A stretch of DNA of 63,990 bases, counting the filler, from an uncultured Acidimicrobiia bacterium (GTDB lineage Bacteria > Actinomycetota > Acidimicrobiia > Spongiisociales > JAOTWH01), in assembly GCA_964347285.1 (NCBI GenBank). It is 3 parts of 3 records of this genome, joined end to end, with 100 filler letters (N's around TTAATTAATTAA, not from the genome) between each part and the next. Parts side by side here need not be neighbours in the genome. Positions count along the whole stretch, not along the records: positions 1 to 26,982 come from CAYFYE010000024.1; 2 more parts are not named here. The stretch is one strand, 5' to 3'. A model generated the notes under the pieces. It did no database searches. It saw only the letters and a list, made by a program, of their open reading frames with translations, and was not told where the DNA came from. The translations under genes were made by a program, and so were the position numbers. Below are positions 20,065 through 24,551 of the stretch, piece after piece. How positions within the stretch are numbered: the first letter of the stretch is position 1; each line of letters opens with the position of its first letter.

Positions 20065-21234
20065 GTGACCCGACGTGCCATCACGAGGGCCAGGCTGATC
20101 GACGGCACCGGTGCCCAGGCCGCGCCCTCCACCACCGTGATCTGGGAGGACCGCACGATCACCTGGGTCGGCCCCGATGCCGAAGCCGACCTGGAGGGAG
20201 CAGAGGTGACCGACGCCGCCGGCGCCTCGCTGCTGCCCGGATTGATCGACGCCCACGTCCACCTGGTGCTCGACGCCTCCCTCGAAGGGGTGGACCGGCT
20301 GGCAACCGAACCACTCAACGAGATCGTGAGGCGGGCCGACGACAACGCTGCCCGGCTTCTGCACTCCGGCATCACCAGCGCTCGCGACCAGGGGTCCCGC
20401 CAGAGCGTGGCCATCGGTGTCGCCGAGCGTCAACGGAGCGGCCAACTGGTGGCGGCCCGCATCTTCGCGGCCGGCCGGGGCATCACGGCTCCCGGCGGAC
20501 ACGGATGGATGATGGGCGTCCAGGTCGAAGGACCCGACGGGGTGCGACAAGCAGTGGCCGAGGAGATCGAACGAGGGGCCGATGTGATCAAGCTCTTTCC
20601 AACCGGCGGGGTTCTGGGCAGCGGAGCACACGGCTTCGAGGTCACGATGACAAAAGAGGAGATCTCGGCCGCCGTCGCCGAGGCCCACGCCGGCGGAAAG
20701 CTGGTGGGCGCTCACGTCCACGGCGCCGAGGGGGTGGCCCTCTGTCTGGCCGCCGGAGTCGACACGATCGAGCACGGGACCGGGCTCTCGGCCGAGCAAG
20801 CCGCCCAGATGGTGGACCGTGATATCGCCCTGGTGCCGACGATGATGGCCGTGGAGGTGCTGGCCGGGCGAACCGAGGTCGCCGAGGACCTGGCCGAGCG
20901 AGTCGCCGAGATCCGTCCGATCATCGGCGAAACCGTGCGACGGGCCATCGAATCCGGGGTCCGGGTGCTGGCCGGCACGGATGCCGGGACCCCATTCAAC
21001 CCCCCCGGAGGTCTCTACCGCGAAATGACCCTCCTCGCCGGCCTGGGGCTGGGCAACGCCGGAGCTATCGCCGCGGCAACTTCGGGACCCGCCCGGGTGC
21101 TGGGCTTGACCGATCTCGGATCCGTCGAAGCCGGACGGCGAGCCGATCTGCTGTTGGTGGAGGCCGACCCCCTGACGGATCTGGCGGCGCTGGCCTCGCC
21201 CCGTCTGGTGGTTCAGGACGGCGAAATCACCTAG
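20065..21234 (+). CDS. Metal-dependent amidohydrolase (prolidase-like subgroup)
   Basis: PGLIDAHVH, GADVIK, AHVHG, IEHG, AGTDAG, GRRADL. Confidence 0.9.
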   Translation: MTRRAITRARLIDGTGAQAAPSTTVIWEDRTITWVGPDAEADLEGAEVTDAAGASLLPGLIDAHVHLVLDASLEGVDRLATEPLNEIVRRADDNAARLLHSGITSARDQGSRQSVAIGVAERQRSGQLVAARIFAAGRGITAPGGHGWMMGVQVEGPDGVRQAVAEEIERGADVIKLFPTGGVLGSGAHGFEVTMTKEEISAAVAEAHAGGKLVGAHVHGAEGVALCLAAGVDTIEHGTGLSAEQAAQMVDRDIALVPTMMAVEVLAGRTEVAEDLAERVAEIRPIIGETVRRAIESGVRVLAGTDAGTPFNPPGGLYREMTLLAGLGLGNAGAIAAATSGPARVLGLTDLGSVEAGRRADLLLVEADPLTDLAALASPRLVVQDGEIT

Positions 21235-21845
21235 ATCTCATCGAGGAGTTTCTGCTTCTTCTCCTCGAACTCCTCGTCGGTGAGTGCGCCCTCGCGGTGC
21301 AGGGCCGCCAGGCGCTCCAGCTTGGCCGTGGCATCTGTCGGATGAGGACCGGCCCCCGCCAACTGGGACGCCCTCTGCTCCCGGACCTGGTAGAGCAGCG
21401 ACTGGAAGTCCTCGGGTTCCGGTATGTCGCTGAAGCGGCTCTGGCCCATTTCGCCGGCCGACTCGATCAGGAGGTCGCCCGACTTGAGCACCCGCTCCAA
21501 CACCGTCTGGGAGAACTTGATGTCGTTGATGTTTTCGAGGGGGATCTCGGTCCCTTGTCGGGCAATGACCCCCCGGCGGGTGACCAGCCGCTCGCTGGTG
21601 AGGATGTACCACGTGAACCACCATTTGATGAAGCGCCACAAGCCGAACCAGAGCCACAGCAGCAGGACCACGCCCACCGTGATCAGGTCGACGGTCCCAT
21701 CCTCGGGAGGCAGCAGGAACGCGGCAACGATGCCCGCAATGGCGAGCACGGTCCATAACGCCGGGATGAACAGCATCCGCCAGTGAGGCCGAAACTCGCG
21801 AACGATCTCTTCGCCTTCGGAGAGCAAGCGGCGGGGATAGCGCAT
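21231..21845 (-). CDS. Membrane bacterial PH-domain protein with C-terminal SHOCT
   Basis: RPHW, two TMs, YILTSERLVTRRG, GDLLIESAG; LERLAALHREGALTDEEFEEKKQKLL. Confidence 0.85.
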   Translation of the reverse strand: MRYPRRLLSEGEEIVREFRPHWRMLFIPALWTVLAIAGIVAAFLLPPEDGTVDLITVGVVLLLWLWFGLWRFIKWWFTWYILTSERLVTRRGVIARQGTEIPLENINDIKFSQTVLERVLKSGDLLIESAGEMGQSRFSDIPEPEDFQSLLYQVREQRASQLAGAGPHPTDATAKLERLAALHREGALTDEEFEEKKQKLLDEI

Positions 21846-21947
21846 GGCAGGGACAGTAGTCACTATCGGCGGGACTAAGGCCCTTCGGCGCGGCCTTCGG
21901 CCCCCGGGACGGCGGCTAACTTGCCTCCGTCGACCGGAGGGGAACCC

Positions 21948-22409
21948 ATGACGCTTCGAGAATGGCTGCTCTTCACTCACATCCTCGCCGCCGTGGCCTG
22001 GGTGGGGGGATCGATCATCCTCCAGTTCTTCGCATTTCGGGTCAATCGTTCACGTGATCCGAAGCGGACCGTTGATTTCGTCGACTACGCCGACCTGGCC
22101 GGCCGGGTCTTCAACGTGGCCGGCATCGTGGTGGCCGCCGCCGGGATCTGGATGGTCATCGACATCGAGGCGTACGACTTCGATCAGGCCTGGATCATCT
22201 ACGCCCTCGCCGTCGTGGGCGCCTCGGCGTTGCTGGGGATGTTCTTCCACAGCCCCAACACCAAGCGAATCCTCGCCGTTGCGGCCGAACGCGGTGCCGA
22301 AGATCCCGAAATCGGTCTAGGGCTTCGCCGGATCGTCCTGGTGGCCCAGATCGAACTGGCGCTCCTGGTGCTGGTGGTCTACGTGATGGTCTTCAAACCG
22401 GGGGGGTGA
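21948..22409 (+). CDS. DUF2269-like 4-TM membrane protein
   Basis: LFTHILAAVAWVGG N-terminus, VYVMVFKPG C-terminus. Confidence 0.8.
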   Translation: MTLREWLLFTHILAAVAWVGGSIILQFFAFRVNRSRDPKRTVDFVDYADLAGRVFNVAGIVVAAAGIWMVIDIEAYDFDQAWIIYALAVVGASALLGMFFHSPNTKRILAVAAERGAEDPEIGLGLRRIVLVAQIELALLVLVVYVMVFKPGG

Positions 22410-22448
22410 GGGGGGACCGCGTCGAACCCGGGCCGACGACCCGGTTCG

Positions 22449-22503
22449 AAAAAGAGGAACCCCGAGGGAGCCTCGGCCGAAGCCTTGGCCCTCTCGGGGT
22501 TCC
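22449..22503 (-). terminator. Intrinsic-terminator-like 3' end of ncRNA A
   Basis: GGAACCCCGAG...CUCGGGGUUCC stem followed by UCUUUUU. Confidence 0.7.
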
Positions 22504-22799
22504 AGTCGAAGCAACCTTTCGGCTGCTCCGATCCCTCCAGGCCGAAGCCCTTTGGGCGTGGCCCCGTCGGTTTTCAGCCAGTCGAGCCCGAAGACCCTCC
22601 CGGCCGGAACCCCTTGCAGGGACGACCCGGCGGGGCCGCTCCGAGGACCCTTGCGAATCCCCAGAGGTTTTGCTCCACCTCGGTTACGGTTGACCCGAAG
22701 GCCCCGTCCGGCCCCCTTTCGAGAGCTTTAGATGGAGCGCCTCCGGTGAGCCTTTCGACTCTTCCGGGGGCCTTCCGACCCAGTTGCCTGAGCCGAAGT
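22449..22799 (-). ncRNA. Candidate large structured ncRNA A (~350 nt, ten tetraloop-capped hairpins)
   Basis: Promoter upstream and terminal hairpin plus U-tract. Hairpin loops 5' to 3': GCAA, GAAA, GAAA, UUCG, GCAA, GCAA, UUCG, UUCG, GAAA, UUCG. Many G-U pairs form only on this strand. No credible ORF. Confidence 0.8.
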
Positions 22800-22805
22800 G
22801 GAATG

Positions 22806-22834
22806 AATGTACGCCTTCCCCCGCCAATCGTCAA
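22806..22834 (-). promoter_or_regulatory. SigA-type promoter of ncRNA A
   Basis: TTGACG (22834-22829), 17 bp spacer, TACATT (22811-22806). Confidence 0.75.
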
Positions 22835-22851
22835 GCCGAACCCGTATCTAG

Positions 22852-22879
22852 ATTTCGCGTCTCAACAGGACTTTTCGCG
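22852..22879. promoter_or_regulatory. Two TTTCGCG boxes upstream of the ncRNA A promoter
   Basis: ATTTCGCG 22852-22859 and TTTTCGCG 22872-22879. Confidence 0.5.
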
Positions 22880-23340
22880 GGGCCCCGGAACGGGAGGAGC
22901 TCCCCCTCTCACCCACACCTCTCGCCTCACCTCCGCCGTCGACCGACTCGCCACTCGTCACCGCCCCGTCGCCGCCCGGCCCTCTGGTTCCAGGCCACCG
23001 GGCGAGCGCGAGCCGGACGTCGCCGGCCTGCTTCGGCCGAGACCGGATCCGCCGCCGAGGCGGGGCCGGCCGCCCGAGCACGCGAGACGGCTTTCGCCGA
23101 GGGAAGCGGACGTACGGTGGGAGNNNNNNNNNNNNNNNNNNNNNNNNNNNNNNNNNNNNNNNNNNNNNNNNNNNNNNNNNNNNNNNNNNNNNNNNNNNNN
23201 NNNNNNNNNNNNNNNNNNNNNNNGCCGCCCGAGCACGCGAGACGGCTTTCGCCGAGGGAAGCGGACGTACGGTGGGAGGAGCGGGTCGACGACGAGTGGA
23301 ATCACCCTCCGGGCCGGCCGGGAACCGGCTCCGACCGCAC

Positions 23341-23556
23341 AAGAGAGGAACCCCGAGGGAGCCTCAGCCGAAGCCTTGGCCCTCTCGGGGTTCCAGTCGA
23401 AGCAACCTTTCGGCTGCTTCGATCCCTTCGGGCCGAAGCCCGTCGGGCGTGGCCCCGTCGGTTGGACCTAGTGAGCCCGAAGACCCTCTGGGCCGTCCCC
23501 GGTTAAGGGGTACCCGGCGGAGCCGCCTCCTCAGACCTCTCGGCCCTTGGAGGAAG
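23341..23556 (-). ncRNA. Candidate structured ncRNA B (~215 nt), shorter paralog of ncRNA A
   Basis: 23344-23463 matches 22453-22572 with 6 mismatches in 120 nt (counted by eye), and changes in helices keep pairing. It has its own promoter and terminal hairpin. Confidence 0.78.
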
Positions 23557-23560
23557 CAAG

Positions 23561-23589
23561 ACAGTAGGCGTTACCCCCCGGGACGTCAA
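23561..23589 (-). promoter_or_regulatory. SigA-type promoter of ncRNA B
   Basis: TTGACG (23589-23584), 17 bp spacer, TACTGT (23566-23561). Confidence 0.72.
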
Positions 23590-23606
23590 CCTGCAGTGAG
23601 GGTTTG

Positions 23607-23682
23607 TTTTCGCGCTCTCAACGATGGTTTTCGCGGCTCCCGCCCATACATTTTCGCGATCCTACCAAGCAGCGTTTTCGCG
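23607..23682. repeat. Four direct repeats of TTTTCGCG (putative regulator binding array)
   Basis: Copies start at 23607, 23628, 23651 and 23675 (spacing 21/23/24 bp). Confidence 0.7.
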
Positions 23683-23709
23683 CTTTGCGGCAGGCCAGAA
23701 CTACACGCG

Positions 23710-23731
23710 TGTCACTTGATTCGCGTATCAT
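23710..23731 (+). promoter_or_regulatory. PafBC/RecA-NDp-like promoter TGTCAC-N10-TATCAT
   Basis: Same geometry as mycobacterial TGTCGG-N10-TAnnnT; 7 bp before the GTG of the nuclease gene. Confidence 0.55.
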
Positions 23732-23738
23732 CTGGGCC

Positions 23739-24551
23739 GTGCCGGAGACGACCATCCTCGACCGCCTCTCCCCCAGCCGGGCCTCCGACTTCAAGCAGTG
23801 CCCCCAGCTGTTCAAGTTCCGGGCCATCGACCGGCTGGACGAGCCGCCCACCATCCATCAGGCCCGGGGCACCACTGCCCACCTGGCGCTGCAGCGGCTG
23901 TTCGACCTGCCGGCCGAAACGCGCACCCCCGACGCCCTCTACGACCTCTTTCGGCAAGCGTGGGTGGAGGTGCGCGCCGAAGAGTACGCCGACCTGTTCG
24001 CCTCGACCGAGGAGGAGCGCGCCTGGGGCCTCGAGTCGCTCGAGCTCCTTGCCAACTATTTCTCTCTCGAGGATCCGGCCGCCGTCGAACCGATCGAGCG
24101 CGAACTCGACATGGTCGAGGAACTCGATGGGGTCACGATCCGGGGCATTCTCGATCGGATGGAGGAGAACGACGAAGGCGAGCTGATCATCATCGACTAC
24201 AAAACGGGCAAGGCCCCTCCGGAACGGTTCGCCCTGCCGGCCTTCTTCGCTCTCAAGATCTACGCCCTGCTCATCCGGCGACGTACCGGGCGGACTCCGG
24301 CAGAACTCAGGCTCCTCTACCTCAACGGACCGGAGATGTATCGATTGTCCGTCAACGGCAACCAGCTGGACGCCATGCACCGCCAGCTGGTGGCGCTGTG
24401 GGATGCCATCGGTCGGGCCATCGGGCGCGACCACTTTCCCCCGCGGGTCAGCAAGCTCTGCGACTACTGCGCTTTTCGCGAGTTGTGCCCGGCCTGGGAG
24501 ATGAGCGCCGACGGCCTACCCGTTCTCGCCGGGGCAGGAACGGGGCCCTAG
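23739..24551 (+). CDS. RecB-family / Cas4-like PD-(D/E)XK exonuclease with probable Fe-S cluster
   Basis: LSPSRASDFKQCP, RGILDR, IIDYKTG, CDYCAFRELCP (four-Cys staple). Confidence 0.88.
   Translation: MPETTILDRLSPSRASDFKQCPQLFKFRAIDRLDEPPTIHQARGTTAHLALQRLFDLPAETRTPDALYDLFRQAWVEVRAEEYADLFASTEEERAWGLESLELLANYFSLEDPAAVEPIERELDMVEELDGVTIRGILDRMEENDEGELIIIDYKTGKAPPERFALPAFFALKIYALLIRRRTGRTPAELRLLYLNGPEMYRLSVNGNQLDAMHRQLVALWDAIGRAIGRDHFPPRVSKLCDYCAFRELCPAWEMSADGLPVLAGAGTGP

Follow-up and report, generated by a model that had tools for sequence, protein, structure and literature searches.

In silico analysis of a 63,990-nt stretch of DNA (the window; three joined parts of assembly GCA_964347285.1, from an uncultured bacterium of the Acidimicrobiia order Spongiisociales) has revealed two neighbouring genes for small structured RNAs, RNA A and RNA B, both encoded on the minus strand. 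On the sequence evidence they represent a previously uncatalogued RNA family, which is specific to one order of uncultured Acidimicrobiia. It is highly probable that the family is a genuine, independently transcribed family of non-coding RNAs. Such an RNA, belonging to no named family, had been proposed at the RNA A locus in an initial annotation, and the predicted promoter, the fold, the homologues and the covariation support it. A role as protein-bound RNA acting in trans is favoured with less confidence. The reading preferred here, in which the RNAs are independently transcribed, trans-acting, protein-bound small RNAs (sRNAs) co-regulated with replication genes, is given a probability of about 0.5.

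RNA A is the long form of the family (Table 1). The promoter named in the initial annotation, TTGACG-N17-TACATT, proved to be the sole sigma-70-like site in the region 22300-23750, with 0.0 sites expected (consensus scan against 50 shuffles), and its position places the predicted start near 22799, as had been claimed. The minimum free energy (MFE) fold of 22445-22800 (-) reaches -204.5 kcal/mol with z = -6.35, none of 100 dinucleotide shuffles being as stable, while for the complementary (+) strand the values are -162.6 kcal/mol and z = -2.53. The comparison of both strands had been suggested as a check, and the two z-scores indicate that the strand bias of folding is real. Every one of the ten tetraloop-capped hairpins previously drawn by eye reappears in the MFE fold. 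The loops are, from 5' to 3', GCAA, GAAA, GAAA, UUCG, GCAA, GCAA, UUCG, UUCG, GAAA and UUCG; all ten are thus GNRA or UUCG loops, and all four UUCG loops have the C-G closing pair ascribed to them. The 3' end consists of a 22-pair stem (22503-22456) followed by UCUUUUU, as had been recognised in the initial annotation; this is the combination of terminator hairpin and U-rich tail characteristic of Hfq-type sRNAs.

The absence of a named family was likewise confirmed. At gathering score, Rfam 15 gave no match in the whole window, and up to E = 10 the region 22300-23000 yielded only sub-threshold noise, the best value (E = 0.081) belonging to a human long non-coding RNA model; no tRNA was found in the window. 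Signal recognition particle (SRP) RNA, RNase P RNA and transfer-messenger RNA (tmRNA), whose signatures had not been seen in RNA A, are excluded as identities, as their genes lie elsewhere in the genome; all three were located away from the RNAs in G000, G021 and G031, with scores above the cut-offs. Literature searches retrieved no description of small or structured RNAs in Acidimicrobiia.

The homologue search proposed for Acidimicrobiia gave matches throughout one order. With RNA A as a BLAST query, 43 of 61 genomes of the same order, from 12 families, were matched, mostly in the last hairpin and usually two or three times per locus (the tally takes in one unpublished genome, G022, on which no result hinges). 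A total of 49 hairpin units were found in 30 loci of relatives. A strict hairpin pattern, scanned against 401 genomes of the phylum, gave family-like matches in the same order only, namely in all six sampled genomes and in the window's own; the remaining matches are unrelated sequences with the same outline, including one chance match in the unpublished genome G140. In a collection of genomes from 185,579 species the pattern occurs in at least 138 stretches. Among the matches listed, 80 of 80 are metagenome-assembled genomes, mostly titled Acidimicrobiia or Actinomycetota, with a few bins titled otherwise. The pattern had no match in viral contigs, and a phage origin was rejected on that ground.

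A covariance model of the family, R1 (227 positions, 64 pairs, built from 13 sequences), was searched against a sample of 121 genomes of the class, each at least 90% complete. Of these, 35 were matched, namely the window's own genome, 33 of the 34 further genomes sampled from its order, and one of the 86 that belong to other orders. The family counts inside the order are 13/14 (f4), 6/6 (f9), 5/5 (f2), 5/5 (f12), 1/1 (f6), 2/2 (f7) and 1/1 (f11). Families f3, f8 and f10 lie outside the R1 sample and gave BLAST matches in 0/2, 1/5 and 1/5 genomes, respectively. The sole R1 match outside the order (G344, 44.3 bits) is a candidate only, with no forward promoter box of the kind described below seen upstream.

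Covariation among homologues, whose lack would have spoken against a functional RNA, is abundant. RNAalifold applied to a MAFFT alignment of 13 units predicts 64 pairs, 28 of which have compensatory changes. In 43 units aligned to the model at E <= 1e-17, changes on both sides were found in 54 of the 64 pairs, and 92.6% of cells hold standard pairs, against 74.1% with shuffled partners (0 of 500 shuffles reach the observed value); when partners are slid by 1-3 columns, pairing falls to 35-58%. The consensus core module is composed of P1 (GNRA), a three-way junction with GNRA and UUCG arms, P3 (UUCG), P4 (GNRA) and the terminal hairpin. Over 23341-23526 (-), RNA B shares 86% identity with RNA A (positions 162-351). 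Within RNA A, 22676-22761 aligns to R1 positions 16-111 (18.6 bits, E 3.6e-4), and on this match its 5' third is a diverged duplicate of P1 and the junction; the extension is partly conserved in the long forms of two relatives, G002 and G007. Predicted transcript lengths cluster at about 140-150, 205-270 and 310-420 nt, giving classes of about 145, 225 and 350 nt. The 34 short forms all have P1, P2 and the terminal hairpin, together with a third hairpin that comes in two kinds.

The loop types swap among homologues (e.g. GAAA to UUCG or GCAA, and between GNRA and UUCG) while the helices are retained. Together with the exclusive use of stable tetraloops in RNA A, this would suit a large self-organised RNA, i.e. 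a ribozyme or an RNA-only scaffold such as raiA or ROOL, with its function in a tertiary fold of GNRA loops and junctions. However, body size and architecture are not conserved between paralogues, no conserved unpaired core nucleotides or pseudoknot were seen, and the raiA model gave no match, which leaves this explanation quite improbable. The raiA motif RNA (RF03072) is a structured non-coding RNA of about 200 nt whose mechanism is unknown and which has been reported in Acidimicrobiia among others, according to PMC10861870. The present RNAs are of similar size and also structured, whereas raiA is described in that source as single-copy and usually without a terminator module. Membership in raiA is not supported: no match was obtained at the locus (E <= 10) or in five genomes, the five-genome search being weak since it had no control match, and two to three copies are present here.

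The most conserved part of the family is the 3' hairpin, 48 nt long and almost invariant. Its consensus is GRRN-CCCCGAGAGGG-yNRA-GGC-UUCG-GCC-GARR-CUCCCUCGGGG, followed by UUUCUCGCGU. Five pairs (three C-G, one G-C and one G.U) are the same in all 43 sequences, and the unpaired A (facing C) is retained; the upper stem covaries. GAGAGGG is the sequence of the 5' strand in 123 of the 134 distinct units. In 131 tails the positions 1-3 are U in 109-119, and CGCG follows within 14 nt in 80. Because this sequence constancy exceeds the need of a plain terminator, and because the G.U pair and the A.C mismatch are strand-specific, we infer that the hairpin is recognised at the RNA level, beyond a plain terminator function. 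Binding of PyrR was considered, as the consensus of the PyrR binding loop resembles CCCCGAGAGGG, and was dropped: there was no PyrR match at E <= 10, and the motif is base-paired here.

The same hairpin bears on two further explanations. It is near-palindromic and has weaker matches on the opposite strand, as might be expected if there were no functional RNA at all and the locus held a repetitive extragenic palindromic (REP)-like element, a terminator or an unrecognised small protein gene. This is hardly credible: instead of the many dispersed copies typical of REP elements, the window's genome (187 contigs, 90.5% complete) contains only two, both at one locus, with RNA B about 0.5 kb upstream of RNA A; neither the G.U pair nor the A.C mismatch, both strand-specific, varies, and compensatory changes occur throughout the body. 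The longest closed open reading frame (ORF) has a median of 12 aa in 107 units, which makes protein coding unlikely. The second explanation is a chaperone-independent, base-pairing sRNA family whose purine-rich linkers pair with mRNA targets. Semi-conserved unpaired linkers are indeed present (GGAGGG between P3 and P4, GRGAR before the last hairpin), and the 6C sRNA of the same phylum works without a chaperone (PMC6486639). The linkers are short, however, and the most conserved element is a fully paired hairpin; this explanation is considered improbable. As described in PMC6486639, the 6C sRNA of Actinomycetota is replication-linked, with targets including dnaB. It therefore resembles the present family as an actinobacterial sRNA with a link to DNA replication, and it differs in acting via C-rich loops, which are absent here; at gathering score Rfam found no 6C match in the window.

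The evidence for co-regulation comes from the promoters. When these are aligned on the -35 element, a CGCGAAA box in forward orientation starts 25 nt before it and a second box lies 20 nt further upstream. At least one in-register box is present in 35 of 36 candidate promoters upstream of units, and a box with a promoter was found within 600 nt of 107 of the 134 distinct units. A search of 41 near-complete relatives for a dual box plus TTG gave 50 occurrences, distributed over 28 of these genomes, as compared with one for the reversed control. Most occurrences are pairs 0.3-1.2 kb apart on RNA-bearing contigs. The exceptions lie upstream of dnaA (four: G040, G049, G058, G456), of the class II ribonucleotide reductase gene nrdJ (two: contig C7 of the window's genome and G057) and of a small gene encoding a 99-aa protein (two: G048, G460), with one further, unassigned, in G458; the occurrences on G456:C7 and G460:C128 were left out of inspection.

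The three genes were then surveyed in relatives. A forward box is located upstream of dnaA (L212-L241) in 29/29 loci, mostly about 220-350 nt before the start, and is dual (18-24 nt apart, here and below) in 21/29; one locus without enough upstream sequence had been dropped. For nrdJ (L242-L271) the values are 29/30 and 8/30, as compared with 4/30 and 0/30 in a control stretch of equal length inside the gene. The 99-aa gene, counted in the 26 of 30 fetched loci with a tblastn match (L272-L297), has a forward box in 26/26 loci, 73-117 nt before the start, and a dual one in 2/26. The CGCGAAA box thus looks like the mark of an order-wide regulon with a putative DNA-binding factor. Literature searches gave no description of the CGCGAAA and TTCGCGAA motifs.

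Several further box sites have been noticed. In the window's own genome they lie upstream of nrdJ (C7:34904-34951), whose promoter also contains what we take to be an NrdR-box-like palindrome, and upstream of dnaA (C46). A dual box with 21-nt spacing at C87:671-697 (L186) precedes the gene of a secreted protein of about 894 aa from the endonuclease/exonuclease/phosphatase family, with no canonical -35 at the usual distance. A single CGCGAAA box with a promoter-like site at C43:7200-7253 (-) stands upstream of a putative lipoprotein gene; this could be another member of the regulon or a match by chance. In five genomes the single-box plus promoter pattern gave RNA loci and one lipoprotein gene only, rRNA and tRNA promoters not being specifically checked. 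In a genome of family f10 (G036:C1:155300-156200, minus strand; L033/L037), at a place where the hairpin was not found, the same dual boxes stand in a tandem repeat of about 250 bp beside a short G-rich hairpin element, perhaps another RNA whose promoter is built in the same way; the product of the gene downstream, judged by eye, is presumably similar to M23 peptidases.

In the mechanism proposed, each RNA gene would be transcribed from its own near-consensus promoter of the primary-sigma type, and a DNA-binding factor at the CGCGAAA boxes would couple RNA synthesis to the programme of replication and nucleotide supply. The RNAs would be stable and act in trans. The invariant 3' hairpin would double as terminator and sequence-specific protein handle, the variable, rigid 5' body representing the effector or scaffold part. 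The most likely partner would be the product of the co-regulated 99-aa gene, a protein of predicted Hfq-like fold, which would bind the 3' hairpin and the U-rich tail as Hfq does on classical sRNAs. The most far-reaching version, in which the sRNA array, the Hfq-fold protein, dnaA and nrdJ constitute one regulon under the CGCGAAA-box factor in this order, with Hfq-type riboregulation wired to replication initiation and dNTP supply, is doubtful as a whole.

The 99-aa protein is encoded in the window's own genome (C153:1574-1870; L278:1501-1797), with an SAF/CpaB-like gene downstream. It is predicted to consist of a 45-residue N-terminal helix followed by five strands. The only Pfam match of the protein family is DUF2642, sub-threshold and in 13 of 25 members; literature searches found nothing relevant on this domain. 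An AlphaFold2 model from a 25-sequence alignment has a mean predicted local distance difference test score (pLDDT) of 91 and a predicted template modelling score (pTM) of 0.64. The best matches of this model in the PDB (Foldseek) are nearly all Hfq chains, with template modelling (TM) scores to target of 0.70-0.87 and a root-mean-square deviation (rmsd) of 1.0-2.4 A. The best match is Listeria Hfq (E 5e-4, TM to target 0.72, rmsd 1.9 A, 26% identity); further Hfq matches come from S. aureus, B. subtilis, E. coli and Pseudomonas, and the listed entries that are not Hfq are a designed SH3-like barrel and a poorly fitting cytochrome. An Hfq-like Sm fold is therefore predicted with high confidence. 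Strong profile matches (E <= 1e-20) occur in the RNA's own order only; among 86 genomes from outside it, three gave weak ones (E about 1e-5 to 1e-6). In the description of PMC6486639, Hfq and ProQ are completely missing from high-GC Gram-positive bacteria. The predicted Hfq-like protein is the leading candidate for the RNA partner, because it shares the order and the promoter box with the RNA, which itself carries an Hfq-type 3' module; the proposal is nevertheless tentative and less likely right than wrong, because the gene is absent from part of the order.

A number of points weigh against the preferred reading. The gene of the Hfq-like protein was not found in the complete genome G021, even by profile, and family f4 gave only three strong and five weak matches among 14 genomes; as both carry the RNAs, the protein is no obligate partner. 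Nearly all loops are closed tetraloops, which leaves scant single-stranded sequence for base pairing or for Hfq-type contacts with A/U-rich segments, and a run of at least four U is present in only 46 of the 131 tails. The ends of RNA A and RNA B are predicted from sequence, and since a bPH_2/SHOCT gene on the same strand begins shortly after the last hairpin in most relatives, read-through into this gene may occur. The box could be an architectural or UP-like element instead of the site of a regulator. Finally, the 43-sequence alignment was fitted to the model and its pair counts lean to that structure; the MAFFT-based covariation count is free of this bias.

Another kind of protein-bound RNA has to be weighed here, namely one which takes the role of 6S, Ms1 or CoRP and sequesters the core or holoenzyme of RNA polymerase (RNAP). 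6S RNA (RF00013) was not found in five of five genomes at E <= 1 (four of them in one or two contigs), while control genomes were matched; SRP RNA, RNase P RNA and tmRNA, as stated above, are all present elsewhere. Unrelated RNAP-binding RNAs of 300-516 nt have been described in actinobacterial lineages, namely Ms1 (PMC9130861) and CoRP (PMC11077062), and the near-consensus promoters would fit such a role. However, the covariation-supported fold consists of hairpins and three-way junctions, without a rod bearing a central bubble that resembles an open promoter, and the two to three paralogues of 145-470 nt have only a closed hairpin in common. In addition, the Ms1 synteny with a HAD-IB hydrolase and an oxidoreductase, as given in PMC9130861, is absent at the locus. 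RNAP binding is hence regarded as rather unlikely, and binding to a different protein remains the preferred reading.

Membership in two of these families was examined separately. 6S membership is not supported, as the window contains no match to the model and the consensus fold has no long irregular helix with a large central bubble; the same holds for Ms1, as the neighbours are genes of a PD-(D/E)XK nuclease, a DUF2269 protein and a bPH_2/SHOCT protein. The new family is set apart from Ms1 and CoRP by their descriptions, not by sequence comparison. There are nevertheless clear likenesses with Ms1 (Mycobacterium, Streptomyces), CoRP (Corynebacterium) and 6S: all are highly structured RNAs of 200-500 nt, restricted to a lineage and expressed from stand-alone intergenic genes with strong promoters, and the genomes with Ms1 or CoRP are, as here, Actinomycetota genomes without a recognisable 6S. 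The differences relate to the missing rod with central bubble, the other synteny, and the tandem paralogues of varied size, which are joined here only by the 3' hairpin.

Among sRNAs of other phyla, Qrr1-5, OmrA/B and PrrF1/2 of Proteobacteria are paralogous Hfq-dependent sets, each with one regulator. They resemble the present arrays in that (i) sister genes are often adjacent, (ii) the same regulator site lies upstream, (iii) the terminator hairpin with its U-rich tail is conserved at the 3' end, and (iv) a small Sm-fold protein, here a predicted one, is encoded in the genome. In contrast to these sets, the RNAs described here are much longer, almost fully paired and capped by tetraloops, and the Sm-fold protein, which differs from their Hfq in its 45-residue N-terminal helix, is not found in every RNA-bearing genome and is a candidate partner only. 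The sponge RNAs CsrB and RsmX-Z display a GGA binding motif many times in hairpin loops. They are also multi-hairpin RNAs of variable length, present in several copies and with promoters that have a common upstream activating sequence; however, the present RNAs have GNRA or UUCG loops, and each contains the conserved element a single time.

The features of the locus are collected in Table 1.

Table 1. Features of the RNA A/RNA B locus; positions are those of the window.
Feature	Position	Strand	Basis or remark
bPH_2 + SHOCT membrane-protein gene, usual same-strand downstream neighbour of the array	21231..21980	-	Pfam; synteny
DUF2269 membrane-protein gene, convergent with RNA A, between array and bPH gene	21921..22409	+	Pfam E 3.5e-12
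sRNA gene A, long form, ~351 nt (predicted)	22449..22799	-	predicted start to end of U tail; promoter and fold
RNA A core module: P1 (GCAA), three-way junction (GCAA + UUCG arms), P3 (UUCG), P4 (GAAA), terminal hairpin	22446..22674	-	R1 206.7 bits
RNA A pyrimidine/U tail UCUUUUU	22449..22455	-	directly 3' of terminal hairpin
RNA A terminal hairpin (putative family handle and terminator stem): A.C mismatch, invariant G.U pair, 2x2 purine internal loop, UUCG cap	22456..22503	-	
RNA A 5' extension: GCAA hairpin, GAAA hairpin, second three-way junction	22675..22799	-	partial duplication of core P1 + junction
Promoter A: TTGACG (22834-22829), 17-nt spacer, TACATT (22811-22806)	22806..22834	-	consensus scan
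Promoter A CGCGAAA boxes x2: 22879-22873 and 22859-22853	22853..22879	-	20 nt apart; proximal box begins 25 nt before -35
Scaffolding artefact: 100 N (23124-23223) + 55-nt duplicated overlap	23069..23223		same 55 bases flank the N run on both sides
sRNA gene B, medium form, ~214 nt, paralogue of RNA A core (predicted)	23341..23554	-	R1 219.6 bits on 23337-23561
RNA B terminal hairpin	23347..23394	-	
Promoter B: TTGACG, 17-nt spacer, TACTGT	23561..23589	-	
Promoter B CGCGAAA boxes x4, starts 23682, 23658, 23635, 23614	23608..23682	-	
PD-(D/E)XK (Cas4/AddB-like) nuclease gene, divergent from the RNAs	23604..24551	+	Pfam PF12705, E 1.9e-37

The gap between the two RNA genes is considered a scaffolding artefact with no sequence missing, because a DNA contig of the metagenome run X1 runs straight across it, joining 23068 to 23224 and skipping 155 bases (55 letters fit on either side). 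After its removal about 300 nt of ordinary sequence separate RNA B from the promoter region of RNA A. The summed contig depth in runs X1 and X3 peaks at 22447-22544 and 23329-23524, the conserved 3' parts of the RNAs, with values up to 203 in X3; the many loose contig ends at these peaks are as expected if contigs of related organisms have the hairpin in common. Another GC-rich hairpin (GAACCGGG...CCCGGGUUCG) is located just past the U tail of RNA A, at 22417-22447 (-), where it faces the 3' end of the convergent DUF2269 gene and probably acts as terminator of this gene or in both directions.

At least one of the two syntenic neighbours, the nuclease gene and the bPH_2/SHOCT gene, was found in 25 of 30 loci, and both in 9 of 30 (flanks of about 1.5 kb). 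In 17 of the 30 loci the bPH_2/SHOCT gene follows the array at a short distance and in the same orientation, which raises the possibility of a cis-acting leader or attenuator of that gene. In the window, however, the convergent DUF2269 gene separates the two (tblastn with its product gave no match in the relatives' loci beyond L001), so that RNA A is no leader here. Since, moreover, each unit has its own promoter, internal units included, and since the units end in terminator hairpins and exist as tandem copies of differing size, a cis-leader role is very unlikely, and RNAs acting in trans remain preferred. In two relatives, G007 (L003) and G002 (L004), a long form is followed by a medium form after only about 5 nt, and the pattern gave no box and promoter for the second unit; some arrays may accordingly be co-transcribed and processed.

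Read from its listed TTG start, the nuclease ORF overlaps all four boxes of promoter B (23604-23760, +). The true start probably lies further into the ORF, because the relatives align only from about residue 25-55. The nuclease was rejected as a partner of the RNA: its gene occurs throughout the class (117 of 121 genomes), also in orders that lack the RNA, and the link is positional only. Eight regions upstream of the nuclease gene in other orders contained no bPH gene and no dual box. Closeness to oriC was not found either: in G021, G031 and G035, about one third of the chromosome separates dnaA from the array.

Acidimicrobiia are abundant and mostly uncultured, and the family, being near-universal in one of their orders and having a covariation-supported structure, is ready for RNA family databases as it is. 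The promoter box offers an entry to the question of how these bacteria co-ordinate dnaA with ribonucleotide reductase. The co-regulated protein of predicted Hfq-like fold raises the question whether high-GC Gram-positive bacteria, in the description of PMC6486639 devoid of Hfq and ProQ, have Sm-type RNA chaperones after all. If the one-regulon reading were true, the rigid, tetraloop-studded RNAs would be dedicated, possibly cell-cycle-timed, RNA components of an Hfq-type system in a phylum held to lack Hfq.

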